A stretch of DNA of 64,000 bases, taken from contig CAMVGD010000005.1 in the NCBI GenBank assembly GCA_947166925.1, positions 425 to 64,424 on the forward strand, read 5' to 3'. Below the pieces are notes generated by a model. The model was not told where the DNA came from, did no database searches, and saw nothing but the letters and a program-made list of their open reading frames with translations. The DNA comes from an uncultured Clostridia bacterium (GTDB taxonomy: Bacteria; Bacillota; Clostridia; Christensenellales; CAG-138). This document shows positions 3,869 through 21,585 of this stretch, piece by piece. The first letter of the stretch is position 1, and each line of letters starts with the position of its first letter. The translations under genes and the position numbers were made by a program.

Positions 3869-4807
3869 TTATAGAGCATTCATGTTGTTTTGTCGATTCT
3901 TCTTGTGCGCGACAAGGATATCATTCCAGTCTTTTTGATTTTCTGGGAAATGGGAGGGGTACTGAGGTAGCGACTCGGCAAAATGCCTGCCGGCGTCGTC
4001 ATTGTCGAAACAAAGATGCAGAACTGCGAATGGATACTGGCGCTGAACACGCTTTATTGCCTTTGTACACCCACATCCGCCGATCGAAACGAAGGCGAGA
4101 CTATACTTCTCGCAGTCATATCCGTTTAGCTGGTAGAGATTCATCAAGGAAAGCGCATCAATTGCAGCCTCACACACATATATTGTCATCGGATTGCGGC
4201 TGCCGACAATCCAGTATCCATCATGATCGCAGTGAGCGGCCTTTCCCTTAAAAGGAAGACATGGGCTCGTTCCACGGATCTCAGCATAGTTGCAGTCCCG
4301 GGAAAGGAATACCGCGTTCACATGTCCGTTAGAAATCGTCGGGTAGACAATCTCCGGATCAAGGAGTGCAGCGTCGATGCCGCGCTTGTCGCAGAGGTAC
4401 GTCCGTAATTCTACGGGACACAGTGCACGAGGCGGCGCGACGAAGGCAGATCCTGCATCTGAAGGAACAGGCACATTCTGCGCCGTAGATTTGGATACAG
4501 CAACAGAGGCACTTCCGTGGGAGCATAATTCCGGATCGCGGCCATCGTCGTAATCACAAAGAGCACGAACAGCATCTTGGAAGGGCATGTCGAGATACTC
4601 CACGAGAAAGGAGATCGCATTATCGGCTCTGCCCGTTGAATTGTCATAAAAGCCGTGATCCGAAAAGACGACTTTCCGGTTTTCAGTCCACCTCGAATGG
4701 TTCTTACCATCCGGCTGCGTTTGCTCAGGATATACATTGAGCATAAAGCGGTTGAGATCTACGCCACGGGCGCATTCAATTTGATTCTTTCCTACACGAT
4801 TGGACAT
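3869..4807 (-). CDS. Toprim-domain primase-like protein (DUF3991/Toprim type)
   Basis: The C-terminal Toprim signature (ICVCEAAIDALS...LCFDNDDAGRHF) is present. This architecture is common on mobile elements. A GAGGAGG RBS precedes the start. Confidence 0.7.
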   Translation of the reverse strand: MSNRVGKNQIECARGVDLNRFMLNVYPEQTQPDGKNHSRWTENRKVVFSDHGFYDNSTGRADNAISFLVEYLDMPFQDAVRALCDYDDGRDPELCSHGSASVAVSKSTAQNVPVPSDAGSAFVAPPRALCPVELRTYLCDKRGIDAALLDPEIVYPTISNGHVNAVFLSRDCNYAEIRGTSPCLPFKGKAAHCDHDGYWIVGSRNPMTIYVCEAAIDALSLMNLYQLNGYDCEKYSLAFVSIGGCGCTKAIKRVQRQYPFAVLHLCFDNDDAGRHFAESLPQYPSHFPENQKDWNDILVAHKKNRQNNMNAL

Positions 4808-4819
4808 TATTAATCCTCC

Positions 4820-5227
4820 TCATTTATATGATTCTTTTTTCTGACGTTTTGAAATCTCTTTGTAGCTTCCCAGCAGCATCATCCGTTTCTCGGAACTAAC
4901 GCGACATGCTAAGTCAGGGTGTACAAAATAGGTGCTTGTTGATTCCCTTATCAAGAGATTCCACGATCGAAGCTTTTTGATGGTAAGCTTCACAGTACTT
5001 TCGCAGACGCCTGCCTGTTTAGCCAGTTCCGGATATGTTCCGTGTACTTGATTGCCGAAGTTCATTTTGCTTAACATTTTGAGCAGCACTTTGCATTCAC
5101 CATGTCCGAGGCGCTCACATGTGTCAAACAGCAGTTTGAGATCAATTTTGGCAAAACCAAAGTCGTTCTTCATATCTCCGATTTCGCCGGTGTTTTTGTT
5201 TAGGCCGAACCAGGTTACAGTTCTCAT
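4820..5227 (-). CDS. Winged-helix replication/maintenance protein (RepL-like)
   Basis: YPELAKQAGVCESTVKLTIKKLRSWNLL is a wHTH. It lies upstream of the primase-like gene and next to the iteron-like repeats. Confidence 0.5.
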   Translation of the reverse strand: MRTVTWFGLNKNTGEIGDMKNDFGFAKIDLKLLFDTCERLGHGECKVLLKMLSKMNFGNQVHGTYPELAKQAGVCESTVKLTIKKLRSWNLLIRESTSTYFVHPDLACRVSSEKRMMLLGSYKEISKRQKKESYK

Positions 5228-6229: not shown

Positions 6230-6256
6230 GGCCCGCTGCCGGCGGGCCTTTCTTTT
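6230..6256 (+). terminator. Rho-independent terminator
   Basis: GGCCCGC-tgccg-GCGGGCC followed by TTTCTTTT. Two further hairpin+T structures occur at about 6335-6360 and 6367-6397. Confidence 0.5.
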
Positions 6257-6627
6257 AATCAAAGAGCTGTTTTGTCATTGTATCTACAGAAGGACAGATC
6301 TCCATCGCCTTCGGAACAATATGTCTCGCAGAGACGCTGCCGCATGGCGGCGTTTTTGCGCTTTCACGCCCTGCAGCGCTGTTTGCAGGGCGTTTTCATA
6401 TTTTAGGGCCCTCATATTTGAGATGAGCGAACGGCTTGTTAAACATTGTTTAAGACATCCTCATACGGCTTTTCTTGCGACGCAAAAATGTTTGGAAAAC
6501 TTGGTTTCCTGTCCGATTTATCGAATAGATGATATGCGAGAATGAGTCGAAGGAGTCGAAGGAGGACGAAGACGTCTATATTGCGTGCAATATTGGCAAA
6601 GGTGGGTTATTATTTGCGAACTTTTAT

Positions 6628-6656
6628 TTGCAGATCCGATCGTGATGTGGTATAAT
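6628..6656 (+). promoter_or_regulatory. Promoter of the XRE-hsd operon
   Basis: TTGCAG, 17 nt, then TATAAT. Confidence 0.5.
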
Positions 6657-6685: not shown

Positions 6686-6904
6686 ATGGGCGTGAGCTAT
6701 AAAAAGCTTTGGAAACTGCTGATCGATCGTGATCTTAAGAAGCAGGATCTCGAAAGGCAAGCGGGGATCAGCCATTTTACAATGAACAAGCTTTATCATG
6801 GGAAAAGTGTTTCAACGGATATCCTCGTAAAGATTTGTACCGCGCTGAATGTCTCGATGGATGACATTCTGGATATCGTTCCAAAGCCGGAGGCAGAGAA
6901 ATAA
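6686..6904 (+). CDS. XRE-family HTH protein, candidate controller of the R-M operon
   Basis: LKKQDLERQAGISHFTMNKLYHGKSVSTDILVKICTAL is a Cro/C1 HTH. The GGAGG RBS sits 8 nt upstream. Its stop codon lies 1 nt before the hsdR ATG. Confidence 0.75.
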   Translation: MGVSYKKLWKLLIDRDLKKQDLERQAGISHFTMNKLYHGKSVSTDILVKICTALNVSMDDILDIVPKPEAEK

Positions 6905-6905
6905 C

Positions 6906-9632
6906 ATGTTGACACCGGAGCAGAGGGCAAGGCAGGTTATAGACAAGAAGCTGAGAGAAGCAGGCTGGGAGATTCAGGATCTGAATCGCATCAATCCGAT
7001 TGCGTCCCTCGGCGTTGCCGTGCGAGAGTATCCGACGAGCACCGGGCCGGTTGACTATGCACTGTTCGTGGACGGCTCGCCCGTTGGCGTGATCGAAGCC
7101 AAGCGCAGCGAAGCCGGGGAGCATATCACTGACGTCGAAACACAATCCGGACGCTATGCAAACAGCACCTTCCGGTATGTGAACAATCCAAAGATTCGCT
7201 TTGCGTATGAAGCAACCGATCAGTTGGTGCGTTTTACCGACTATGACGACGTCAATTATCGTTCCCGTGAGGTGTTCTCATTCTTCCGCCCGGAGACGCT
7301 GAAGCGTTTGCAGGGACAGCAGGGAACGATTCGGAACAATATGCGGCATTTCCCGGCGTTGGATGAAACCGGGTTCCGTAAATGTCAGGTTACAGCAATC
7401 AAGCGGCTGGACGAGTCCTTCTCTTTGAACAAGCCTCGCGCATTGGTGCAGATGGCAACCGGCGCGGGAAAGACGTTCACGGCAATCACAGCAGCATACC
7501 GCCTCTTGAAATACGGCAAGATGAACCGCATTCTGTTCCTTGTGGATACGAAGTCCCTCGGCGAGCAAGCAGAGCGCGAGTTCCTTGCCTATACACCGAA
7601 CGACGATCCGCGTTCCTTTGCACAGCTTTACGGCGTGTGCCGTTTGAAGTCGAGCTATATTCCCTCCGACGTGCAGATCTGTATCAGCACGATTCAGCGT
7701 ATGTATTCGATCCTGAAAGGCGAGCAGTTGGACGAGAAAGCGGAGGAGACGCCGTTTGCCGAATTGAAGATGGCGGACAGGCAGGCCCCAAAGGAAGTCG
7801 TCTATAACGAGAAGTATCCGCCGGAGTTTTTCGACTGCATCATCGTCGACGAGTGCCACCGCTCGATTTATAACGTCTGGAGCCAGGTGCTTACTTACTT
7901 CGATTCGTTCATCATCGGCTTGACAGCAACGCCGGATAAGCGTACCTTTGCGTTTTTCCACGAGAACATCGTCAGCGAGTATTCGCGTGAACAGGCAATT
8001 CTGGAAGGCGTCAACGTCGGCGAAGACATCTTCATGATCGAAACGGAGATCACCAAGAACGGCGCGCATCTGATGAAGCAGTACATTGAGACGCGCGATC
8101 GGCTGTCCCGTACACGGCGCTGGCAGCAGATGGATGAGGATATCGACTACGCTGCGCCGCAGCTCGACAGAGACATCGTGAACCCGAGTCAGATCCGTAC
8201 TGTGATTCGCTCGTTCAAGGAAAACCTGTTTACGATGCTTTTCCCGCGTCGTAAGGAAGTACCGAAAACGCTGATCTTCGCCAAAACCGACAGCCATGCG
8301 GATGATATCGTGCAGTGTGTGCGTGAAGAGTTCGGCGAAGGCAACGAGTTCTGCCGCAAGATCACCTATTCGGCGGAGAATCCGGAATCCGTGCTCAGCT
8401 CCTTCCGCAATGACTACTATCCCCGCATCGCCGTCACCGTGGACATGATCGCCACCGGTACCGACGTAAAGCCCATCGAGTGTCTGATCTTCATGCGCGA
8501 CGTCCGCAGCAAGAACTATTTCGAGCAGATGAAGGGACGCGGCACACGAACACTCGACAGGGACGAACTGCAGAAGGTGACACCCTCTGCCACGGAGAAT
8601 AAGGATCATTTTGTGATCGTGGACGCTGTCGGAGTAACCAAGTCCGTCAAGACAGAAACCCGTTCGCTGGAGCGCAAACCGTCTGTTTCACTGAAAGAGC
8701 TGATGCTTCTTGTCGCCATGGGAAGCAAAGACGAGGATACCTTGACGTCGCTTGCAAACCGTCTCACGCGTCTCGATAAGCAAATGACGCAAGCTGAACG
8801 CCGGGAGTTCGCGGCGCTTGCGGGTGTTGGGATCGGCACCATTGCGGAGCGTTTGCTGAATGCGTTTGATGAGGATGTGATCCGCGCAGCAACCGGCGAA
8901 GCAGAGCCAACCGAGGAGCAGATGCATGCGGCGCAGAAAGAACTGCTGCGGCAGGCGACGGAGCCGATCTATAACCCGGACGTGCGGGAACGCCTCGAAA
9001 ACGTGCGCCGCAGCCACGATCAGATCATTGACAACGTCAATCTGGATGAAGTGCGGTTCGCCGGGTTCGACACGCAGCAGGAACAACATGCAGAACAGAC
9101 GATCTCCTCGTTCCGTGCATTCATTGAGGAAAACCGGGACGAGATCATAGCGCTGCGCATCATCTACAGCGAAGCGTACAAAAACCGTCCGATGGCAATC
9201 GAACAGTTGAAAGCGCTGTATGAAAAACTGAAGGCAAGGGGCGTCACTATACAGCGGCTCTGGGATTGCTATGCGATCAAACAGCCGGAAAAAGTGAAGC
9301 GCGGAACGGTTGCACAGCTTACCGATTTGATTTCTCTGGTTCGATTCGAGCTCGGCTATACCGATCAGCTATCGCCGTTTGCCGACAAAGTAAACTATAA
9401 CTTCATGGAATGGACGTTGCGCCGGAACGCCGGTTCCGTCCACTTCACCGAGGAGCAGATGGAATGGCTGCGGCTCATCAAGGATCATATCATTTCGTCC
9501 CTGTCCGTCACGCCGGAGGATCTGGATCTGAACCCCTTTGATCGCAAAGGCGGCCTCGGCAGATTCTACGCGGTGTTCGGCAAGGACTATAAGGCGATCC
9601 TGCAGGAAATGAATACGGAATTGGTGGCGTAA
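6906..9632 (+). CDS. hsdR: Type I restriction enzyme R subunit (EcoEI/COG4096-like)
   Basis: The N-terminus EQRARQVIDKKLREAGWEIQ, Walker A TGAGKT, DEAH-like VDECH and TATP motifs are present. The long C-terminal domain is typical of EcoEI-type HsdR. Confidence 0.9.
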   Translation: MLTPEQRARQVIDKKLREAGWEIQDLNRINPIASLGVAVREYPTSTGPVDYALFVDGSPVGVIEAKRSEAGEHITDVETQSGRYANSTFRYVNNPKIRFAYEATDQLVRFTDYDDVNYRSREVFSFFRPETLKRLQGQQGTIRNNMRHFPALDETGFRKCQVTAIKRLDESFSLNKPRALVQMATGAGKTFTAITAAYRLLKYGKMNRILFLVDTKSLGEQAEREFLAYTPNDDPRSFAQLYGVCRLKSSYIPSDVQICISTIQRMYSILKGEQLDEKAEETPFAELKMADRQAPKEVVYNEKYPPEFFDCIIVDECHRSIYNVWSQVLTYFDSFIIGLTATPDKRTFAFFHENIVSEYSREQAILEGVNVGEDIFMIETEITKNGAHLMKQYIETRDRLSRTRRWQQMDEDIDYAAPQLDRDIVNPSQIRTVIRSFKENLFTMLFPRRKEVPKTLIFAKTDSHADDIVQCVREEFGEGNEFCRKITYSAENPESVLSSFRNDYYPRIAVTVDMIATGTDVKPIECLIFMRDVRSKNYFEQMKGRGTRTLDRDELQKVTPSATENKDHFVIVDAVGVTKSVKTETRSLERKPSVSLKELMLLVAMGSKDEDTLTSLANRLTRLDKQMTQAERREFAALAGVGIGTIAERLLNAFDEDVIRAATGEAEPTEEQMHAAQKELLRQATEPIYNPDVRERLENVRRSHDQIIDNVNLDEVRFAGFDTQQEQHAEQTISSFRAFIEENRDEIIALRIIYSEAYKNRPMAIEQLKALYEKLKARGVTIQRLWDCYAIKQPEKVKRGTVAQLTDLISLVRFELGYTDQLSPFADKVNYNFMEWTLRRNAGSVHFTEEQMEWLRLIKDHIISSLSVTPEDLDLNPFDRKGGLGRFYAVFGKDYKAILQEMNTELVA

Positions 9633-9633
9633 G

Positions 9634-11547
9634 ATGGAAGATAGAAAAGAAGTACCGCGCACCCTTCAGAAATACCTTAATGATAGTAAGGGGTTCATGT
9701 CCGCATTAGGAGATTCCGGTGAAATACAGAAATTCTGTTGGTTTATAAAAAACGGGGTTATCGTAACAACAGATCATCCGGATGCATTCGTAAAGATCGG
9801 GAATGAAATCCTGATTATCGAGCATTTTGCGATTGATGGATATGAGGAAAAGGAACATGCAGGCAGTTTAGCTGCATTCAACGAGAGAGCAATACACGCA
9901 AGATTTACAAAACAAGAGTCGGTTAACGGGAGCAAACAACTTACTGCTCGTTTGGGGGTTAAAAACTCATATCAACAGTTCCTGGACAATTGTTACCGAC
10001 GTTTTGAACATCATTATCAGCAAATAGAGAATTATAAGAATCACCTGCGAGAAGAACACATTGCTGACGATGATTCACAATACACGATTTGTTTCCTGAT
10101 GGATGAAGTATCGCCTCTCGGAACACTAACGGTGGATGATGACGGAAAGATCAATCCGGTTTGCTTGGGGTATTCAAAAGAGTTTTTAGATTATTTTGAC
10201 AATAAACCGTATGTGGATTGGATCATATCGGCAATCATAAAGCCGGGCGAAGACTCCGTTGGATGGAAGTATCAGTCATATTTCTTCTCTCGAAATGATA
10301 TTTCCAAATGCAGAGAACGGATTGTTGATTATGCAAGGTTCCAGTTTTTAGAAAGTGATCCTTGTATTACAGAAGTCGAGCTTGAGATAAGAAAACAGTA
10401 CGCTCGAGTCGGAGATATTCTCCATATGGAAAAAGGTAAAATTCCTTCTGCCACGGCTATTGCTCCTAAGGAAGGTTATTTGCCCTATGTGGATATTAAA
10501 GCGTTTGAAAAGGGGATAGTAGATCGTTACGCATCGGTTCAGAACGCCGTCTTGTGCAATGATGGTGATCTGTTGATTGTTTGCGACGGATCAAGATCCG
10601 GGTTGACAGGGAAAGCAATCAAAGGAGTTGTTGGATCTACGCTTTCAAAGGTATATGCAGACGGACTGACAACAGATTATTTGAGATATTATCTGCAAAG
10701 CAAGTATGAACTGCTGAATACACGGAAAAAAGGGACGGGTACGCCTCACCTCAATGCCGACTTAATCAAGGAAGCCAGTATTTATGTGCCTTCTGTTGAT
10801 GAGCAAAATCATATCGTTTTAAAGATCGAGGAACTGTTCTCAGAACTGGATGCAGGCGTGGAAACGCTGCAAAAAATCAAGCAGCAGCTTTCGGTGTATC
10901 GCAGAGCAGTATTGAAAGAGGTTTTTGAAAGAGATTTCCCCAAGAAACAACTAAAAGACTTTTCAAAAGCCATTAGCGGATATGCATTCAAGAGCAGCAA
11001 GTATTCTCAAGATGGGGGTTATATTGTTGTTAAAATTGGGAATGTCAAAGATAAATACTTCGATTTTTCAAGAGATTTAACGAGAACTAATGAGACAGAT
11101 GATTCAATTCTCAATAAATACTTACTAAAACGTGGTGATTGTCTTATCACATTAACTGGATCAAGGGGAAAACGAGATTATGGATTCGTAGCTATGATTA
11201 CGGATCAGAGCAATTACCTCCTCAATCAAAGGGTTGCCGCTTTGCGCTTTGATCAATCGGTTGCGTATCCTCTCTTTTTTCAATATTACTTGGCTTCACC
11301 TGTGTATCGAGACATGTTTTTTATGTATGAAACCGGAAATGTTGGACAAGGTAATGTAGGTATAAAGGCACTTCTTGATCCTCAGGTTCCATTGCCAAGT
11401 ATTAAAGCACAGATGCAAATCGTTGAAGAACTTGAATCGCGTTTGTCTATATGTGATAGTATCGAACAAACAGTGAAGCAGGCATTGCAACAATCAGCAG
11501 CCATGCGCCAAAGCATTTTGAAACAAGCGTTTGAGGGAGGGCTATAA
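9634..11547 (+). CDS. hsdS: Type I specificity subunit with an extra N-terminal domain of about 255 aa
   Basis: Residues about 256-637 hold two TRDs and two coiled-coil conserved regions (EQNHIVLKIEELFSELD...; IKAQMQIVEELESRL...AFEGGL). Residues 1-255 have no HsdS-like sequence. The ATG lies 1 nt after the hsdR stop. Confidence 0.85.
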   Translation: MEDRKEVPRTLQKYLNDSKGFMSALGDSGEIQKFCWFIKNGVIVTTDHPDAFVKIGNEILIIEHFAIDGYEEKEHAGSLAAFNERAIHARFTKQESVNGSKQLTARLGVKNSYQQFLDNCYRRFEHHYQQIENYKNHLREEHIADDDSQYTICFLMDEVSPLGTLTVDDDGKINPVCLGYSKEFLDYFDNKPYVDWIISAIIKPGEDSVGWKYQSYFFSRNDISKCRERIVDYARFQFLESDPCITEVELEIRKQYARVGDILHMEKGKIPSATAIAPKEGYLPYVDIKAFEKGIVDRYASVQNAVLCNDGDLLIVCDGSRSGLTGKAIKGVVGSTLSKVYADGLTTDYLRYYLQSKYELLNTRKKGTGTPHLNADLIKEASIYVPSVDEQNHIVLKIEELFSELDAGVETLQKIKQQLSVYRRAVLKEVFERDFPKKQLKDFSKAISGYAFKSSKYSQDGGYIVVKIGNVKDKYFDFSRDLTRTNETDDSILNKYLLKRGDCLITLTGSRGKRDYGFVAMITDQSNYLLNQRVAALRFDQSVAYPLFFQYYLASPVYRDMFFMYETGNVGQGNVGIKALLDPQVPLPSIKAQMQIVEELESRLSICDSIEQTVKQALQQSAAMRQSILKQAFEGGL

Positions 11548-11548
11548 G

Positions 11549-12526
11549 ATGCCTTATATTGCACATGCCGGTATCAAACTAAAAGATGACTATCCAAATA
11601 ACAAGAAGAATGAATGGCATTTCATCAAAACGATCAATGAGATCGAATACAGATGGCGTTTGGCCGATGATTCGACTTACGATGTCATAGCGGGACTGTT
11701 TTTTGATCGAAAAGCGGCGCTTGACTGCGCAAAGCAGTTGTATGTTGCGTTGTTGTATGACTTGCTGAGTGCAGGCTTTTCAATTGAGGATGCCGGTTGT
11801 GACTCTTACGAACCGATGCTTTATGTTAAAGAATTAGATGGAGCTTATGATAGTTGGTTAGCTAATGAAGAGTATTTCTTCTGGAACAAGAAAAAGCAAG
11901 GTGCCGGAAGAACTGGCCCTGGCGTGTTTGAAGCTGAGAATGGCATTGAGGAGTTTGCCGAGTATGATTTTTTTGATATGTCTGTGAAGAAATCATGGGG
12001 TGATGCCAATCTGGATTTTGAAAGTGTTGATACTTATCTGTTTGAGTATTCAGAGGAGACTCAACAATTGTTGAATACAGTTGTCGTTGCTGATTCTGTT
12101 TTTGACTTTGGGTTGCGGATGACACTATATTGCGGACTTCTCGAACACTTAGCGGAGGATGCACAGAAAGAACCTGAGGTTTTACAAGTTTTGGATCAAC
12201 TGATTAAGAACGTCGAAGAATCCGCCCTTTCTTTGGAGCAAAAGCAGTCCTTACAGAACTTCTTGACTGAGGGCAAAAGGCAATCTTCGCGCAAAAGAAT
12301 TAAGGCGCTATGCCAGAAGTATGCAAAGTCAATGTATCATAAATATTCGACTGACAAGATCGTCAGCAAGGCATACGATGCAAGAAGTGCTTATTCGCAC
12401 GGGAACACAGGTGGTTATAGCGATGAAGCATGGTATATTAAGTTTGTTGTACTGGATGTTGTAAAGAACTATTTACAGGAGAAAGAAGGAAACGCGCAAC
12501 AATCTACAACCAAGGAACACTTTTAG
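11549..12526 (+). CDS. Hypothetical protein with a C-terminal HEPN-like Rx4H motif
   Basis: The ATG lies 1 nt after the hsdS stop and follows GAGGGAGGG. The motif YDARSAYSHG (R279-x4-H284) sits in a predicted helical C-terminal region. The function is inferred only. Confidence 0.6.
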   Translation: MPYIAHAGIKLKDDYPNNKKNEWHFIKTINEIEYRWRLADDSTYDVIAGLFFDRKAALDCAKQLYVALLYDLLSAGFSIEDAGCDSYEPMLYVKELDGAYDSWLANEEYFFWNKKKQGAGRTGPGVFEAENGIEEFAEYDFFDMSVKKSWGDANLDFESVDTYLFEYSEETQQLLNTVVVADSVFDFGLRMTLYCGLLEHLAEDAQKEPEVLQVLDQLIKNVEESALSLEQKQSLQNFLTEGKRQSSRKRIKALCQKYAKSMYHKYSTDKIVSKAYDARSAYSHGNTGGYSDEAWYIKFVVLDVVKNYLQEKEGNAQQSTTKEHF

Positions 12527-12550
12527 ACAGGTACTTGAGGGAGGGGTATA

Positions 12551-13666
12551 ATGTTCTGCAGTCATAAGAATGTGTTTATTTCACATTCATCAGCCAATAA
12601 AGAAATCGTTGAGCAACTGAGCTCCTATATTGAGAAGCTTGGTGTTTCATCGGAGCATATCTTCTGTTCGTCAGTCATTAGTCAAGGAATTGATAATGGG
12701 GACAAGCTTGGGAGGGCGATCTCCGGAGCGATTGAACAATCAAGAATTCTTGTATTCTTGCTGTCTCGTGATTTTGTCAACAGCGTTTATTGTATGCAGG
12801 AATTAGGAGTTGGCTGGCATTTGTCAGAGCAAGGAAAAGCAAAGTGCTTCTGTTTGGTTTTGCCGGATATCAGTCTTTCGGAGATCAAAGGCTTTATCAA
12901 TTCGAGCCTTGTAAAGTTTACGTTCATCGACGAGTCGCATAAAGATGAGTTGGGCCTTTTCGCAGAGAATCTTTGCAATGCGCTTCATATAACGCCGCTG
13001 AAGCATTCTGCACAAGCAAATAATGAGAGCGTTTTTTATAGTGCCATCAAAGAAAAACTAAACGCCCTGATATTGAAAAAGAATATAGAATTAGCATTAG
13101 AAAGCGAAAAGAAAGAAACGATAGATAAACAGAAGCGAATAATCGAAGAAAAGGATAGAGCAATCGAAGCATTGAAAGCAGCGAATAGTATCAGCAGTGA
13201 ACGGCTTGCAAGAGAAATGTATTATATCGAAAAGCGAACAATGGAAAACGATTTTGAAGCTTTGGGATATACAAATGGGATAAGTAAAGAATTCTTTAGT
13301 GGGGTATTCAAAGATTTTTGGTACGATATTATTGCACGATATGAAGATATCCTGAAAGGACTCGAGTTATCCTCTGAAAACGAAAATATGGAGATGTTGT
13401 TTGCGACAATTTATGCTGCGGATAACAAAGAAACAGCGGCATACGAGCATATGAAAAAGTTCATTCAATTGAACAATATGCAATTAGCGGACTATCAATT
13501 TGAAAATTTCTTCAAGGGATACCATGGTACAATGCGAGAAGTAATTGACATGCTGAAAGAAAAGGCAGCAAAAGAAAGGGAAGGCAGCACAAAAGATTCG
13601 TATCTCGATACGATACAGTTTCTCGAAGACCGTGAAAAGCGGTTGGGGTTCATATCTGAGGGTTAA
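12551..13666 (+). CDS. TIR-domain protein with a coiled-coil/helical C-terminal domain
   Basis: The N-terminus VFISHSSANKE...ILVFLLSRDFVNSVYCMQELG follows the bacterial TIR pattern, with a candidate catalytic Glu at E84. Residues about 175-215 are heptad-rich (KKETIDKQKRIIEEKDRAIEALK). Confidence 0.8.
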   Translation: MFCSHKNVFISHSSANKEIVEQLSSYIEKLGVSSEHIFCSSVISQGIDNGDKLGRAISGAIEQSRILVFLLSRDFVNSVYCMQELGVGWHLSEQGKAKCFCLVLPDISLSEIKGFINSSLVKFTFIDESHKDELGLFAENLCNALHITPLKHSAQANNESVFYSAIKEKLNALILKKNIELALESEKKETIDKQKRIIEEKDRAIEALKAANSISSERLAREMYYIEKRTMENDFEALGYTNGISKEFFSGVFKDFWYDIIARYEDILKGLELSSENENMEMLFATIYAADNKETAAYEHMKKFIQLNNMQLADYQFENFFKGYHGTMREVIDMLKEKAAKEREGSTKDSYLDTIQFLEDREKRLGFISEG

Positions 13667-13683: not shown

Positions 13684-14232
13684 ATGAGAACGAGAGAAAA
13701 AAGGAAAGACAGTATACTGCCGAAGAAATATCCTTCCGCAGAGTTTTTACACAACGTTTGTCTTTACGACTATCAACGAGTTCTTGATTCATATGACAAG
13801 GTGTATGAAAAAACGAACATAGCATTAGGATTCAGTGGCGTAATATTACTCGTAATTGTTTCGAGCATTGATTATACGATGATTAAAAGAATTGCGACAG
13901 CGACTAATTTGGAGTTGTTTACTATTCTGATGCTGTTATTGTGTTCGGCAGGAAGTGCTATATGCATCGTATGGGCAGTAATACAACTCCTCTTGCTTAT
14001 GAAGAGCAGAGCAGTTACGGTTATGGATAGTATTTCGATTCGAAACGAGGAAATCTATAGAGAATCTAATGAAGATGCTGCACTGTGGATGATTGATAAA
14101 TATACGAAGGTGATCAATGAGATCCGTCCACAAATACAGAAAAAGCAGAAAACGTTTAATGCTGCAGTAATAAAAATAATAATAGCTGTCATTCTATATG
14201 CGATTGTGTTATTGATACAGAAAGGATTATAA
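13684..14232 (+). CDS. Small membrane protein (about 3 TM segments), candidate effector
   Basis: Hydrophobic segments lie at about aa 46-62, 77-106 and 160-178. An AAGGAG RBS sits 8 nt upstream. The gene begins 17 nt after the TIR gene. Confidence 0.7.
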   Translation: MRTREKRKDSILPKKYPSAEFLHNVCLYDYQRVLDSYDKVYEKTNIALGFSGVILLVIVSSIDYTMIKRIATATNLELFTILMLLLCSAGSAICIVWAVIQLLLLMKSRAVTVMDSISIRNEEIYRESNEDAALWMIDKYTKVINEIRPQIQKKQKTFNAAVIKIIIAVILYAIVLLIQKGL

Positions 14233-14235
14233 GAA

Positions 14236-14421
14236 ATGAGCGAAAAAGACAAAACAATTCAGGACATTAATTCTGGGAAGGGATTGCCTCCGCTTAATCC
14301 ACAATCTTCAGGCAATTCATCTGGGCTTACGACAGAGCAGCGTTCTGATGAGACAGGATTGAGAAAAGACTGGTATACACTAAATCGGCAAAGTGATTCA
14401 AAAGGTTATAAGAAACCATGA
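14236..14421 (+). CDS. Small low-complexity protein (61 aa)
   Basis: It starts 3 nt after the TM gene stop and overlaps the hsdM start (ATGA). Its S/G/Q-rich composition makes coding status uncertain. Confidence 0.4.
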   Translation: MSEKDKTIQDINSGKGLPPLNPQSSGNSSGLTTEQRSDETGLRKDWYTLNRQSDSKGYKKP

Positions 14422-15911
14422 CTGATCAAACATCCACCATTGCCTCCAAGGTTTGGAGCTTATGCAATCCGCTGCGCGACGACGGCGTATCCTACGGGGA
14501 TTATCTGGAGCAGTTGACGTATCTGATCTTTTTGAAGATGGCGGACGAGTACGCCAAGGAGCCCTATAACCTCGATATGGGCATACCGGAGGGCTTTACC
14601 TGGGCGGACATGAACACGCTGAAAGGCGCGGAGCTCGAAGCCCAGTACAAAGCGACGCTCGAAGCGCTCGGCGAAAAGGGTGGCATCCTGGGCAGGATCT
14701 TCAAGGGCGCCGTCAACAAGATCAACAACATCGCCATCTTCTACCGCGTCGTGCAGATGATCGACAGGGAGAACTGGGTTTCCATGGCTTCCGACGTCAA
14801 GGGCGTTATATATGAAGAACTGCTGCAGAAGAACGCAGAGGATATCAAGAGCGGCGCAGGGCAATACTTCACACCGCGTCCACTGATCAGAGCGATGGTG
14901 GAGTGCATCCGCCCGGAGCCAATGAAAACGATCGCGGATCCGTGCTGCGGCAGCGGCGGATTCTTCCTTGCTGCACAGGCGTTCCTTGCCGATCCGGCGC
15001 ATTATCAGTTGGATCGTGCGCAGAAGGAGTTTCTGAAAAAGGAGACGTTCTACGGCAACGAGATCGTCGCAGCGACGTACAAGACGGCGCTGATGAACCT
15101 GTTCCTGCACAACATCGGCGATATTTACAGCAACAATGTGCCGATCGCGTTTGGAGACGCGCTGCTGATGGATCCGGGTTATCGCGTGGACTACGTGATG
15201 ACAAATCCGCCCTTTGGCAAAAAATCATCGATCACGCTCACGAATGAGGAAGGCGAGCAGGAGGATGAGGATCTTGTCTATAACAGAACTGACTTCTGGA
15301 CGACGAGCTCGAACAAGCAGTTGAACTTTGTGCAGCATATCAATACATTGTTGAAGGCGACGGGCAAGGCGGCGGTTGTCGTCCCTGATAACGTGCTGTT
15401 CGAGGGCGGCGCGGGCGAAACCGTGCGCAAAAAGCTGCTGGAGACAACAGATCTGCATACGATCCTGCGCCTGCCGACGGGTATCTTTTATAAGCCCGGC
15501 GTGAAAGCAAATGTGATCTTCTTCGACAAGCGTCCGGCGTCTGCACAGCGACAGACAAAGGAAGTCTGGATCTATGATCTGCGCACCAATATGCATTTCA
15601 CCCTGAAGCAGCATCCGATGACGGACGCCGATCTGCAGGACTTCATTCGCTGTTACCACCCGGAAAACCGGTACGAGCGCACGGAAACCTATTCGGAACA
15701 GAACCCGGACGGACGCTTCCGCAAATTTGACGTCGAGCGCGATATCCTCACGCGGGACAAGACGAGTTTGGACATTTTCTGGATCAAGGACAAGTCGCTT
15801 GCCGATCTGGATAACCTGCCCGCGCCGGACGAGCTTGCGGCAGATATCATTGAAAACCTCCAGAGCGCTTTGCAGAGCTTTTCCGAACTCCAGGCGCAGT
15901 TGAAGGGATAA
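14418..15911 (+). CDS. hsdM: Type I R-M N6-adenine DNA methyltransferase subunit
   Basis: The HsdM N-terminal domain (LRDDGVSYGDYLEQLTYLIFLKM), the AdoMet motif DPCCGSGGF and the catalytic NPPFG are all present. Confidence 0.92.
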   Translation: MTDQTSTIASKVWSLCNPLRDDGVSYGDYLEQLTYLIFLKMADEYAKEPYNLDMGIPEGFTWADMNTLKGAELEAQYKATLEALGEKGGILGRIFKGAVNKINNIAIFYRVVQMIDRENWVSMASDVKGVIYEELLQKNAEDIKSGAGQYFTPRPLIRAMVECIRPEPMKTIADPCCGSGGFFLAAQAFLADPAHYQLDRAQKEFLKKETFYGNEIVAATYKTALMNLFLHNIGDIYSNNVPIAFGDALLMDPGYRVDYVMTNPPFGKKSSITLTNEEGEQEDEDLVYNRTDFWTTSSNKQLNFVQHINTLLKATGKAAVVVPDNVLFEGGAGETVRKKLLETTDLHTILRLPTGIFYKPGVKANVIFFDKRPASAQRQTKEVWIYDLRTNMHFTLKQHPMTDADLQDFIRCYHPENRYERTETYSEQNPDGRFRKFDVERDILTRDKTSLDIFWIKDKSLADLDNLPAPDELAADIIENLQSALQSFSELQAQLKG

Positions 15912-15931: not shown

Positions 15932-16375
15932 GTGTACGAGAATCTGAAGGCATTTTTAGATGAATTACCGACAACAGAATATGGCAGGTGGCATTACGAT
16001 CGAGAGAACGATGGTTCGCTGGAGCATCCGTATCAGTTGCCATTTGTGATCTATAACCCAATCGTCGTAAAGCTTATGGAAGCCATTCAGCAATTCGTTG
16101 ACGATCACCCTGACATGGAGCTCACCCGATACGGAGAAATTCTGGAGCAGTCTGGCGTCAAATGGAACTTGGAATCTATGAGCAGTGCCAACGTCAGTAC
16201 GCTGGACGGCAGAACAGTAGTCGCTCTTTTAGTGGCAGCAATGCGCGCAGAACGTTTTTGCGACGGGGCATTCTTTGGCTTCTGCATAGACGGAAGCATT
16301 CAAAAGTGGCTCTTGCGACTGAAGGAGATAGATCAAGGATGCTTAAAAGTATCTTTTACCAAACACGCACCTTAA
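15932..16375 (+). CDS. Hypothetical protein, last gene of the hsd operon
   Basis: GTG start 20 nt after hsdM. A terminator hairpin follows at 16515. I cannot assign a family with confidence. Confidence 0.55.
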   Translation: MYENLKAFLDELPTTEYGRWHYDRENDGSLEHPYQLPFVIYNPIVVKLMEAIQQFVDDHPDMELTRYGEILEQSGVKWNLESMSSANVSTLDGRTVVALLVAAMRAERFCDGAFFGFCIDGSIQKWLLRLKEIDQGCLKVSFTKHAP

Positions 16376-16514: not shown

Positions 16515-16549
16515 AATCCCCGCCAATTAACCGGCGGGGATTAGTGCAT
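16515..16549 (+). terminator. Rho-independent terminator ending the hsd operon
   Basis: AATCCCCGCC-aattaacc-GGCGGGGATT is a 10-bp perfect stem. Confidence 0.55.
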
Positions 16550-18535: not shown

Positions 18536-18642
18536 GCGAGCGAATCGTAGAGAAAGCAATGGGAGCCCGCGATACGGAACGGGCTCCCATCCATCCAATC
18601 CATGAACGTAAAAATGAAATGCACGAAAGCGAGGTAAAAAAC

Positions 18643-19785
18643 ATGGAAAACAGAATGAGCATGAAAAACGAAACACAGGCACCCAAGACGAGAAAGGCCA
18701 AGGCGTCGAACAATGGATCCGGAAGGACGTTTAAGCGCGGTAAATATTGGGCATATGAGATCCGCCGCAAATACTGGGACGGAAACCAAACAAGATATGT
18801 AAGCAGATACGAAGGCAGCTTCAAAACGAAAACGGAAGCCGACAAGGCGAGATACGCAGCACTTGAGGATGTTGAGAAGGAAATCGAAGCAGGCCGGCGC
18901 GGCGATTTGGTGGCGAAGGGAAAGGCGAAGATGACGTTCAGGGATATCGGAAAGGAATTTCTCGCGCTCCATCAGCATAGCTGGGGCAAAAAGACAAGAC
19001 AGTACATGCAAACGAACTTCGAGAAATGCAAAGACTACCATGATCGCGCATGGGACAGCATCACGATGACGGAGTTTCAGGATATCGTCAATATCGGAAC
19101 GACGTATTATACGGCGAAGAAATTGAAGCTTCTGTTGTCCGGTATGAGCAAGTGCGCTGTGAAGTATTACCCGCTGATGAGAGATTATATTCGGGAGTGC
19201 GTTCTTCCTCCGGAGCCAGAGGTGGAGAAACTCGTATTCGAAAGGGAAGAGAGGGACTTGCTTTGGAAGGCAGTCGATCGGAACAGCGAACTGAAGGATA
19301 TGAGCGACGATGATCGTTTTGCGGCAGCAGCATTGCTGATTATGATCTATTCAGGCATGCGCCCAGGCGAGCTTCAGAATATCAATCCGAAGGATATTGA
19401 TCTTGAGAGGAACAGAATCAGCAAAGGCGGGATCAAAACCAAGCGAGGGAAAACCGGTTCGATCTTCGTGATAGACAAGATTGCGCCCCTTGTCCGGGAA
19501 TGGATGCTGGGAAGCAACAGATTTTCGGAAGTGTCGATCGAAACGATCCGTAAAAGAGTCAATGCGCTGCAGGACAAGCTCGGAATGCCGCATCATGTGC
19601 TTTCAGGGAGCAGAACGACAACGGCAACGACACTTGCCGAAATGAGAACGAGCGAAGATGATCTTACTACGATCATGCGTCACACGAACGTAGCCATTAC
19701 GCGCAAGTATTATGACAAATCCGGCGATGACAACGCCATTGAAGCGCTGAGCCGGTTTGACAGAGAAACGACAGAAGAAAACTAA
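18643..19785 (+). CDS. int: Tyrosine-type site-specific integrase
   Basis: The N-terminus has an AP2-like arm-binding region (RGKYWAYEIRRKYWDGNQTRYVSRYEGSFKTKTEA). The C-terminal catalytic region contains SGMRPGEL and MRHTNVAITRKYYDKS (H...Y). The start could lie as far upstream as 18559. Confidence 0.85.
   Translation: MENRMSMKNETQAPKTRKAKASNNGSGRTFKRGKYWAYEIRRKYWDGNQTRYVSRYEGSFKTKTEADKARYAALEDVEKEIEAGRRGDLVAKGKAKMTFRDIGKEFLALHQHSWGKKTRQYMQTNFEKCKDYHDRAWDSITMTEFQDIVNIGTTYYTAKKLKLLLSGMSKCAVKYYPLMRDYIRECVLPPEPEVEKLVFEREERDLLWKAVDRNSELKDMSDDDRFAAAALLIMIYSGMRPGELQNINPKDIDLERNRISKGGIKTKRGKTGSIFVIDKIAPLVREWMLGSNRFSEVSIETIRKRVNALQDKLGMPHHVLSGSRTTTATTLAEMRTSEDDLTTIMRHTNVAITRKYYDKSGDDNAIEALSRFDRETTEEN

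Positions 19786-21510: not shown

Positions 21511-21585
<75 letters not shown>

Follow-up and report, generated by a model that had tools for sequence, protein, structure and literature searches.

The 64,000-nucleotide stretch of DNA considered here (the window; positions 425 to 64,424 of contig CAMVGD010000005.1, assembly GCA_947166925.1, from an uncultured Clostridia bacterium) carries a complete Type I restriction-modification (R-M) operon that contains, between hsdS and hsdM, a gene for a 371-residue protein with a TIR domain. Three cargo units share this slot: a gene for a HEPN-like protein, the TIR gene, and a gene for a small membrane protein followed by a 61-residue open reading frame (ORF) (Table 1). 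Comparison with related loci indicates that the TIR gene is a swappable cassette between hsdS and hsdM of an EcoEI-type operon, itself carried on an integrative element. The encoded protein has three parts, a TIR head, a single long helix and a distal helical bundle, and by sequence and fold the closest relative of its head is the TIR domain of the defence protein SpbK of Bacillus subtilis.

Table 1. The TIR gene, its parts and the surrounding genes, in coordinates of the window
Feature	Position	Strand	Basis or remark
TIR/helical stalk/distal helical domain protein, 371 residues	12551..13666	+	ORF list; 37 full-length homologs at 37-100% identity; AlphaFold2 (AF2) mean predicted local distance difference test score (pLDDT) 88.4
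TIR domain (residues 1-148), SpbK-like	12551..12994	+	Pfam, PADLOC, PDB, Foldseek; family mean pairwise identity 64%
E84 codon (GAA), predicted catalytic glutamate corresponding to SpbK E192	12800..12802	+	SpbK alignment and residue roles in PMC12847820
Single long alpha-helix (residues 152-239) between TIR and distal domains	13004..13267	+	Secondary structure (DSSP) of AF2 model; mean pLDDT of 10-residue blocks 89-97
Local heptad (coiled-coil-like) segment, residues ~180-221	13088..13213	+	Windowed period-3.5 power
Distal helical bundle (residues 240-365), TPR-like, putative sensor	13268..13645	+	AF2 of residues 222-371 alone: pLDDT 96.3, predicted TM-score (pTM) 0.90
Relic copy of hsdS 3' tail (TTGAGGGAGGGGTATAA)	12535..12551	+	Supplies the TIR ribosome-binding site; right repeat of HEPN cassette
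Apea-like HEPN protein, 325 residues	11549..12526	+	Independent cassette; borderline match to Pfam HEPN_Apea (E=5.5e-5; 24.0 bits, cut-off 24.4)
PycTM-like membrane protein (182 residues, 13684-14232) and 61-residue ORF (14236-14421)	13684..14421	+	Independent cassette
hsdR (EcoEI_R_C type), conserved left anchor	6906..9632	+	Pfam ResIII, EcoEI_R_C, HSDR_N
hsdS, 637 residues with fused 255-residue N-terminal extension	9634..11547	+	Pfam Methylase_S
hsdM, conserved right anchor	14418..15911	+	Pfam N6_Mtase E=9e-68
HTH_26 (Cro/C1-type), 74 residues	6680-6904	+	Directly upstream of hsdR; same arrangement in L010 and L028
DUF6508	15932-16375		After hsdM here and in L007 (94% identical)
Fic	19-948
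MBL-rubredoxin protein	1174-2115
Toprim_2	3869-4807	-
RepL	4820-5227	-
Tyrosine integrase	18559-19785		Adjoins tRNA-Asn
tRNA-Asn	21511-21585	-

The TIR head

The ORF begins with an ATG codon that follows a ribosome-binding site (GAGGGAGGGG) at a distance of about 6 nt. Its N-terminal part matches the Pfam family TIR_2 over residues 8-108 (E=3.5e-13; 50.6 bits, cut-off 28). The same ORF matches the Pfam family TIR (E=9.5e-8; 32.5 bits, cut-off 21.3). Among the PADLOC defence models the best match of the head is SpbK, at E=1.4e-22 and 78.5 bits, far above ThsB at E=2e-5 and 22.1 bits. SpbK (9phb) is likewise the top match in sequence comparison with the PDB (E=9.4e-11), where Cat1 comes next, and in a Foldseek search with the AF2 model (E=1.5e-5, target TM-score 0.71), where plant TIR, MAL and SPARTA TIR domains follow. 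The model, which was built with the family alignment as input, divides into a TIR fold of five strands alternating with helices (residues 8-125), a single helix and a seven-helix bundle. The BB-loop of the TIR fold, residues 43-48, has low pLDDT. TIR BB-loops become ordered on assembly only, and the low pLDDT is counted in favour of the mechanism proposed below.

In SpbK the catalytic residue is E192, the NAD+ pocket is formed by S121, S122, T148, Y188 and L165, and the alpha-C interface by N191, G194 and W197 (PMC12847820); D158 is essential for the BE interface. The alignment with 9phb, with an offset of +108 from query to SpbK numbering, places E192 at E84, a glutamate within the motif CMQELG, S121 at S13, T148 at S40, Y188 at Y80, L165 at I57 and W197 at W89. 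All six of these query residues are invariant in the 37 family representatives, and the counterparts of S122 (S14) and G194 (G86) are each kept in 36 of 37. By this alignment the catalytic apparatus of the family is conserved, and one known interface residue of SpbK differs. The preliminary description of this DNA had proposed an N-terminal bacterial TIR domain with E84 as its candidate catalytic glutamate. The domain is borne out by Pfam, PADLOC, the comparison with 9phb and Foldseek, and the motifs quoted for it are present; E84 holds as the predicted catalytic position, both by its alignment with E192 and by its invariance. A lack of conservation at E84, which would have refuted the proposal, is not what the family shows.

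Helical stalk and distal domain

Conservation is lowest in the single helix that joins head and bundle (residues 152-239), with a mean pairwise identity of 27% over residues 176-222. A heptad periodicity is significant only in windows spanning residues 180-221, where it is reached by 0-2 of 500 shuffled sequences. This segment is about 50% charged, has conserved hydrophobic columns at 191, 194, 198, 205 and 208, and in eight homologs is shortened at 197-203 by exactly one heptad (7 residues). A coiled coil along the whole helix (152-239) was rejected, the period of 3.5 being reached by 336 of 1000 shuffles, as expected by chance.

Beyond the stalk seven helices form a bundle at residues 246-365 of the full-length model. 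The distal domain matches nothing in Pfam, NCBIfam or PHROGs, and a Pfam scan of the TIR protein returned no tetratricopeptide repeat (TPR). A profile of the domain finds designed TPR proteins in the PDB at a marginal E=4e-4, and no Foldseek match to a TPR structure reaches significance (E>=0.64, TM-score <=0.5). A hidden Markov model (HMM) of the domain searched against 1.84 billion representative proteins retrieved only 37 with E<=0.001; the strong matches have the same architecture or are fragments of it, and the weakest are multi-repeat TPR proteins. In one of the matches, P0060, this distal domain (E=9e-14, 28% identical over 147 residues) is preceded by a DUF4062 domain and a short helical linker. 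Three further candidates for a different head (P0050, P0051 and P0058) were rejected as N-terminally truncated TIR proteins, and P0060 is, as judged from these sequences, the only genuine alternative. Since it occurs on both TIR_2 and DUF4062 heads, the distal domain has the character of a module, free to combine with either of two NADase heads.

The C-terminal half had earlier been described as helical, with a heptad-rich coiled coil and a repeat-like region that could serve oligomerisation or sensing. Its helical nature agrees with the model throughout (the helix at 152-239 and the seven helices at 246-365). For the coiled coil, a heptad signal is present locally, at about residues 180-221, and not over the whole helix; the repeat-like character finds weak support in the designed TPR proteins and in the TPR proteins at the tail of the HMM search. 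A part in oligomerisation or sensing is judged plausible for this half, which is helical, by analogy with other systems.

A small family with mosaic genes

A search of 5.8 billion proteins yielded only 37 full-length relatives, of about 355-436 residues, and all of these have the same C-terminal half. Their sources are metagenome-assembled genomes of Clostridia (Oscillospiraceae, Acutalibacteraceae), along with gut metagenomes of cattle and sheep. The two halves of the protein differ in conservation, mean pairwise identity being as given in Table 1 for the TIR head and 36.5% for the stalk and distal half. They also differ in relationship from one protein to another. The head of P0009 is 81-91% identical to those of the window clade and its sensor only 33-35%; P0001 and P0002 share 84% identity in the head and 96% in the sensor. 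From these comparisons it appears that head and sensor recombine independently and have separate histories. A conserved head joined to a faster-evolving, exchangeable distal half is the pattern that is expected of an immune sensor-effector.

Sequence of this region is contained in 23 listed sequencing runs, of which 21 are typed as DNA and two are of unknown type; none is labelled RNA. Contigs from two of these (X10 and X13) break at about 12790-12820, at the alpha-C motif, with a near-identical head and a remainder that is 90-95% identical, in agreement with the mosaicism of head and sensor. In runs X7 and X8 a diverged patch of 70 nt lies inside the TIR gene at 12591-12662. Such patchy replacements within the gene (X7, X8, X10 and X13) suggest intragenic recombination among co-existing alleles.

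A second kind of variation concerns the predicted catalytic residue itself. In runs X4, X5 and X6, three sheep-gut samples of one study, the change G12800A converts the GAA codon to AAA and E84 to lysine. These contigs have a depth of 7-11x and differ from the window at only 8 of 1,166 bases; the other changes listed for them within the TIR gene are G54G, L170L, E318D and G371S. E84 is retained in the contigs from X1, X3, X8, X10 and X13 that span position 12800. The E84K contigs probably represent one lineage with a catalytically dead allele, which is what would be expected if the active enzyme is costly, and so hints at a fitness cost. The allele in circulation amounts to a natural negative control.

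Exchange of cassettes between hsdS and hsdM

The hsdR and hsdM genes of the window are 90-95% identical in DNA to those of three sister loci, L007, L010 and L011 (hsdM 93-95%), and have a GC content at third codon positions (GC3) of 0.69 and 0.74. The DNA homology to these loci stops at about the hsdR stop codon (9632-9644) and resumes at or just before the start of hsdM (14401-14418); the block between has a GC3 of 0.32-0.43. What occupies the slot between hsdS and hsdM varies widely, and nine different contents were found across loci in which hsdR and hsdM are conserved. In L007 and L020 it holds nothing but the TIR gene, in L020 with a TIR protein 42% and an HsdR 72% identical to those of the window. 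The TIR gene stands with a gene for a 235-residue protein in L008/9, with a downstream HEPN-like gene of the window family (68% identity) in L010, between an OLD-like ATPase gene and a downstream HEPN_Cthe2314 gene in L011/12, and with the membrane-protein gene in L022/23. Other loci lack the TIR gene and have instead an Mrr_cat gene with the membrane-protein gene and a 61-residue ORF (L024-27), the membrane-protein gene with a 59-residue ORF only (L028-31), or the HEPN-like gene only (L032-36). The window itself has the HEPN-like, TIR and membrane-protein genes together with the 61-residue ORF.

The limits of the individual units can be read from the DNA. The TIR cassette extends from 12535 to 13653, the former being the point from which its DNA is homologous to that of L007, L008 and L011. 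The HEPN cassette is bounded by a direct repeat, identical at 16 of 17 positions, TTGAGGGAGGG[C/G]TATAA, whose copies at 11531-11547 and 12535-12551 consist of the hsdS 3' tail and the ribosome-binding site. Contigs from X4 and X7 that are at least 95% identical to the window join across this repeat and skip exactly 1004 nt (11530 to 12535, or 11542 to 12547), so that the HEPN-like cassette is precisely absent; X7 has a different insert, of 1707 nt, at the same site.

Obligate partnership of the TIR gene with its membrane-protein, HEPN-like, NUDIX, TipAS, OLD-like or Mrr neighbours was rejected, as each of these is found by tblastn across all loci in a subset only. The contents of the slot and the absence of single cassettes show that the TIR, HEPN-like and membrane-protein units are independent of one another, and on this account the recurrent adjacency of TIR and membrane-protein genes is not evidence of a functional pair.

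The TIR gene is not confined to this setting. Seven distinct TIR loci are embedded in Type I R-M operons, and 12 of the 19 distinct loci have no R-M genes nearby. Among the latter are L003 and L005, which lie in a defence island context, and L006, which lies on a mobile element with NACHT and toxin-antitoxin genes; recognisable partners are lacking for the TIR gene in L001, L006, L013-16, L019 and L021. In a distant subclade (L003 7164-9550, L005 7158-9550, L017 3659-5602) the TIR gene is flanked by genes for a NUDIX hydrolase and a TipAS-like protein. The hydrolase corresponds to the PADLOC candidate PDC-S07 (E=2e-45), and in L003 and L005 an ORF of 143 residues is also present upstream. A NUDIX enzyme beside a TIR protein predicted to produce adenosine diphosphate ribose (ADPR) could be a partner or a regulator.

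Neighbouring genes, operon and carrier element

In the HEPN-like protein the motif R279x4H284 is conserved to 95% or more across 35 sequences. Its start is probably the ATG at 11549, which follows a ribosome-binding site, and the TTG at 11531 given in the ORF list appears to be wrong. The 182-residue membrane protein has 3-4 hydrophobic transmembrane helices. The 61-residue ORF behind it is hydrophilic, and its stop codon overlaps the start of hsdM. The membrane-protein gene and an ORF of about 60 residues recur as a pair directly ahead of hsdM, with or without a TIR gene.

The HsdS of the window is only 33-36% identical to those of the sister operons. Its N-terminal extension (9634-10398) corresponds to a separate ORF of 254-273 residues between hsdR and hsdS in L007, L010, L011, L022, L024, L028 and L032, with 28% identity over 239 residues to the 266-residue ORF of L011, and has no match in Pfam or PADLOC. 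The start of hsdR is probably 6906 and not the listed 6849, as judged from the lengths of homologs and from the stop of the HTH_26 gene at 6904; with this start the larger apparent overlap of the two genes vanishes. The HTH_26 gene may encode an operon regulator comparable to RptR (PMC12255303). DUF6508 weakly matches (E=1e-4) a PHROG with the annotation DNA methyltransferase.

Neighbouring genes from hsdR to DUF6508 either overlap or lie at most 24 nt apart. Consensus scans place a promoter-like site at 6627-6656 and terminator-like hairpins at 6230-6393 and 16515-16542; any hairpin between these two is weaker. Promoter-like sites are not enriched (15 found, 17.1 expected by chance), and an internal TIR promoter at 12524-12552 was rejected, its -10 box overlying the start codon.

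GC content is 36-55% up to about 22 kb of the window and rises there to 60% for the remainder. The low GC content, together with the Fic, RepL and Toprim genes and a tyrosine integrase gene next to tRNA-Asn, indicates an integrative mobile element; no att repeats of tRNA-Asn that would delimit the island were found inside the window.

Proposed mechanism and alternatives

The reading that is favoured here, at a probability of roughly 0.6, is that the TIR protein acts by itself, as one polypeptide, as an abortive-infection NADase in the manner of SpbK, with a reversed domain order and a different sensor. The protein at rest would be inactive, possibly a dimer held by the alpha-C face of the TIR domain, by the short heptad segment, or by both. 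Upon infection the distal TPR-like domain (240-365) would bind a phage protein, probably a multimeric one, and the resulting concentration of copies would allow the N-terminal TIR domains to assemble head-to-tail with composite active sites around E84. NAD+ would then be hydrolysed mainly to ADPR and nicotinamide, perhaps also to a cyclic ADPR (cADPR) isomer, and its depletion would halt both the infected cell and the phage. The cassette would act autonomously, without dependence on its operon neighbours, and the two loci in which the TIR gene is the sole cargo of the slot (L007, L020) support this from context. The reading builds on the fold, the conservation of catalytic and interface residues, the domain anatomy of the protein, the assortment of its cassettes and the mosaicism of head and sensor; NADase activity, activation driven by oligomerisation, a phage trigger and abortive infection are predicted by analogy with SpbK and with Swarozyc/Vulcan.

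Several observations weigh against it. Foldseek finds no significant counterpart of the distal domain in the PDB (best E=0.64) or among the viral structures of BFVD, and the domain is named a sensor by analogy. Two positions of the SpbK interfaces are occupied differently in the family: N191 corresponds to Q/E83, and D158 to an invariant G50, next to which D/E51 might substitute. Because of the latter change the geometry of assembly may differ from that of SpbK. The grounds on which the TIR gene is probably co-transcribed with the R-M operon are the consensus scans and the tight spacing of the genes. Finally many of the distant homologs, about half (L001, L013-16, L019, L021), sit among ordinary genes, such as those for a methyltransferase, GNAT, MerR, GntR and PlsY/GpsA. 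The earlier description had counted it as refuting if homologs were never found in defence islands; homologs do lie in defence contexts, namely the seven R-M-embedded loci and L003, L005 and L006.

The preliminary description had left the choice between an NADase effector and a signal synthase acting on the adjacent membrane protein. The second of these, a Thoeris- or Pycsar-like arrangement in which the TIR protein makes a cADPR-type nucleotide that activates the PycTM-like protein and so permeabilises the membrane, now seems unlikely. The two genes are 17 nt apart and occur together again in L022/23; some homologs of the membrane protein match PF18967 (Pycsar effector), with a weak PADLOC match to PycTM (E=0.009) for the window protein; and SpbK makes N1-cADPR. 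The pair is nevertheless together in the window and L022/23 only. The TIR gene does without the membrane-protein gene in five R-M contexts (L007, L008/9, L010, L011/12, L020) and in the 12 loci outside R-M operons, and the latter gene with its ORF of about 60 residues does without the TIR gene in L024-L031. This independent assortment disfavours the signal-synthase option, as do the scores of 78.5 bits for SpbK and 22 for the ThsB models and the absence of a ThsA-type effector or a cyclase: domain scans detected no SLOG, Macro, SAVED or CARF domain in the 182-residue protein and no Pycsar cyclase domain in the window operon (in L028-31 the membrane-protein gene has only the small ORF beside it), and no ThsA-type effector (SIR2, SLOG, Macro) is present in that operon or in any fetched TIR locus. 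A pairing of the TIR protein with the HEPN protein as an RNase partner in a two-component system is very unlikely. A HEPN gene adjoins the TIR gene in three contexts, upstream in the window and downstream in L010 and in L011/12, and the Rx4H motif is conserved; but the order is not conserved, the HEPN proteins belong to two unrelated families, and each gene is found without the other, HEPN-like alone in L032-36 and TIR in L007, L008, L020, L022 and outside R-M operons, with exactly the HEPN cassette missing from the near-identical X4 and X7 contigs.

A closer tie to the R-M enzyme would follow the guard logic of PrrC and EcoprrI, with the distal domain docked on HsdS, HsdM or HsdR and the NADase firing when a phage anti-restriction protein disables the complex. 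Embedding between hsdS and hsdM has indeed persisted over a wide range of divergence (TIR 42-100%, HsdR 72-98% protein identity and 69-95% DNA identity), and in sister loci the start of the TIR gene directly adjoins the stop codon of hsdS or overlaps it. PrrC itself is an earlier case of a latent effector carried within a Type I R-M operon (bioRxiv 10.1101/2024.01.29.577857). However, R-M genes are missing from the neighbourhood of 12 of the 19 distinct TIR loci; HsdS, on which the distal domain would most likely dock, shares only 33-36% identity between loci whose TIR proteins are 81-84% identical; and the unrelated cargo of the same slot (Mrr_cat, OLD-like ATPase, two HEPN families, PycTM-like protein) points to a general hotspot. 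The guard is accordingly held to be improbable, and the same low estimate attaches to its extended form, in which a TIR protein translationally coupled to hsdS would guard the R-M core, TIR domains released on its disabling would cluster and burn NAD+, and the hsdS-tail repeats would be a dedicated signal for effector exchange. There is also little likelihood that the protein is not an immune NADase at all, and instead serves as a non-catalytic scaffold or has some other hydrolase activity, on nucleotides or nucleosides, in housekeeping or regulation. The ordinary surroundings of many distant homologs, the listing of DNPH1-type nucleoside hydrolases by the fold search at E of about 0.007-0.03 and the persistence of the E84K allele in nature could be taken in this sense, whereas the invariance of the catalytic glutamate and of NAD+-pocket residues across the 37 representatives, the status of the closest relative, SpbK, as a proven defence NADase, and the mobile, low-GC, cassette-borne and mosaic nature of the gene, typical of defence genes, argue for the SpbK-like NADase.

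Comparison with known systems

SpbK, a self-sufficient NADase encoded on ICEBs1 (9phb), has the closest TIR domain by HMM, by sequence and by fold, and shares with the window protein the catalytic glutamate, the Ser-Ser/Tyr pocket and the G..W motif of alpha-C. Both are single genes on integrative mobile elements, and both have a helical domain besides the TIR; that of SpbK attaches to the phage portal and gathers the TIRs into clusters. The order of the parts is the reverse: SpbK is sensor-TIR, whereas the window protein is TIR-stalk-sensor, its TIR starting at residue 5. The N-terminal YonE-binding domain of SpbK is absent from the window protein, the sole non-TIR alignment scoring -1.8 bits; the PADLOC SpbK model is matched over its TIR half only (148-307 of 308), and the profile of the distal domain did not find SpbK in the PDB. 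The helix of 88 residues and the TPR-like bundle of 125 residues are not found in SpbK, and D158 is replaced by glycine. By analogy the window protein would work like SpbK, but it is not a member of the SpbK family.

The single-gene systems Swarozyc and Vulcan use DUF4062 (NIR), which experiments have shown to be a TIR-like NADase, and are triggered respectively by a phage portal and by lambdap79 (bioRxiv 10.64898/2026.05.01.722283, 10.64898/2026.09.04.749371). They resemble the window protein in layout, a single gene encoding an N-terminal NADase with a catalytic glutamate and, behind it, an alpha-helical sensor that binds protein, and their action is abortive through NAD+ depletion; the relative P0060 joins DUF4062 directly to the distal domain of the window family. 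The window protein differs from them in its head, which is TIR_2 and not DUF4062 (PF13271), and in its small distal domain of ~125 residues on a long stalk; the layouts were compared from the published descriptions of the two systems, whose sensors are an AUX domain (Swarozyc) and a HEAT domain (Vulcan). Thoeris ThsB likewise has a TIR with a catalytic glutamate, and matches the head weakly by HMM (E=2e-5); the stalk and sensor are not ThsB features. On its gene content the system is not Thoeris (no ThsA), not Pycsar (no cyclase) and not Swarozyc or Vulcan (TIR_2 head).

Defence genes such as PrrC, TgvAB and RloF are known to be embedded in Type I R-M operons, a relationship termed "guilt-by-embedding" (PMC11411939; Payne et al. 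2024, bioRxiv 10.1101/2024.01.29.577857). The TIR gene conforms to this pattern in lying inside a complete Type I operon beside other defence-type cargo, and differs in that the window stacks three cassettes, one of them bounded by a duplicated hsdS 3' tail. Three stacked cassettes between hsdR and hsdM anchors, with one precisely absent from near-identical contigs, offer a testable picture of the gain and loss of such cargo, and a small, well-folded orphan sensor domain found on two NADase heads offers a clean model of sensor/effector recombination, in ruminant-gut Clostridia whose phage defence has been little studied. The literature searched contains no description of the TIR-stalk-distal family, either in its own right or as R-M-embedded cargo. 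The protein plausibly adds a new variant to single-gene defence while belonging to a known kind of system; if the prediction is true, it would be the third single-protein architecture that joins an NADase to a sensor, after the sensor-TIR arrangement of SpbK and the DUF4062-sensor arrangement of Swarozyc and Vulcan.

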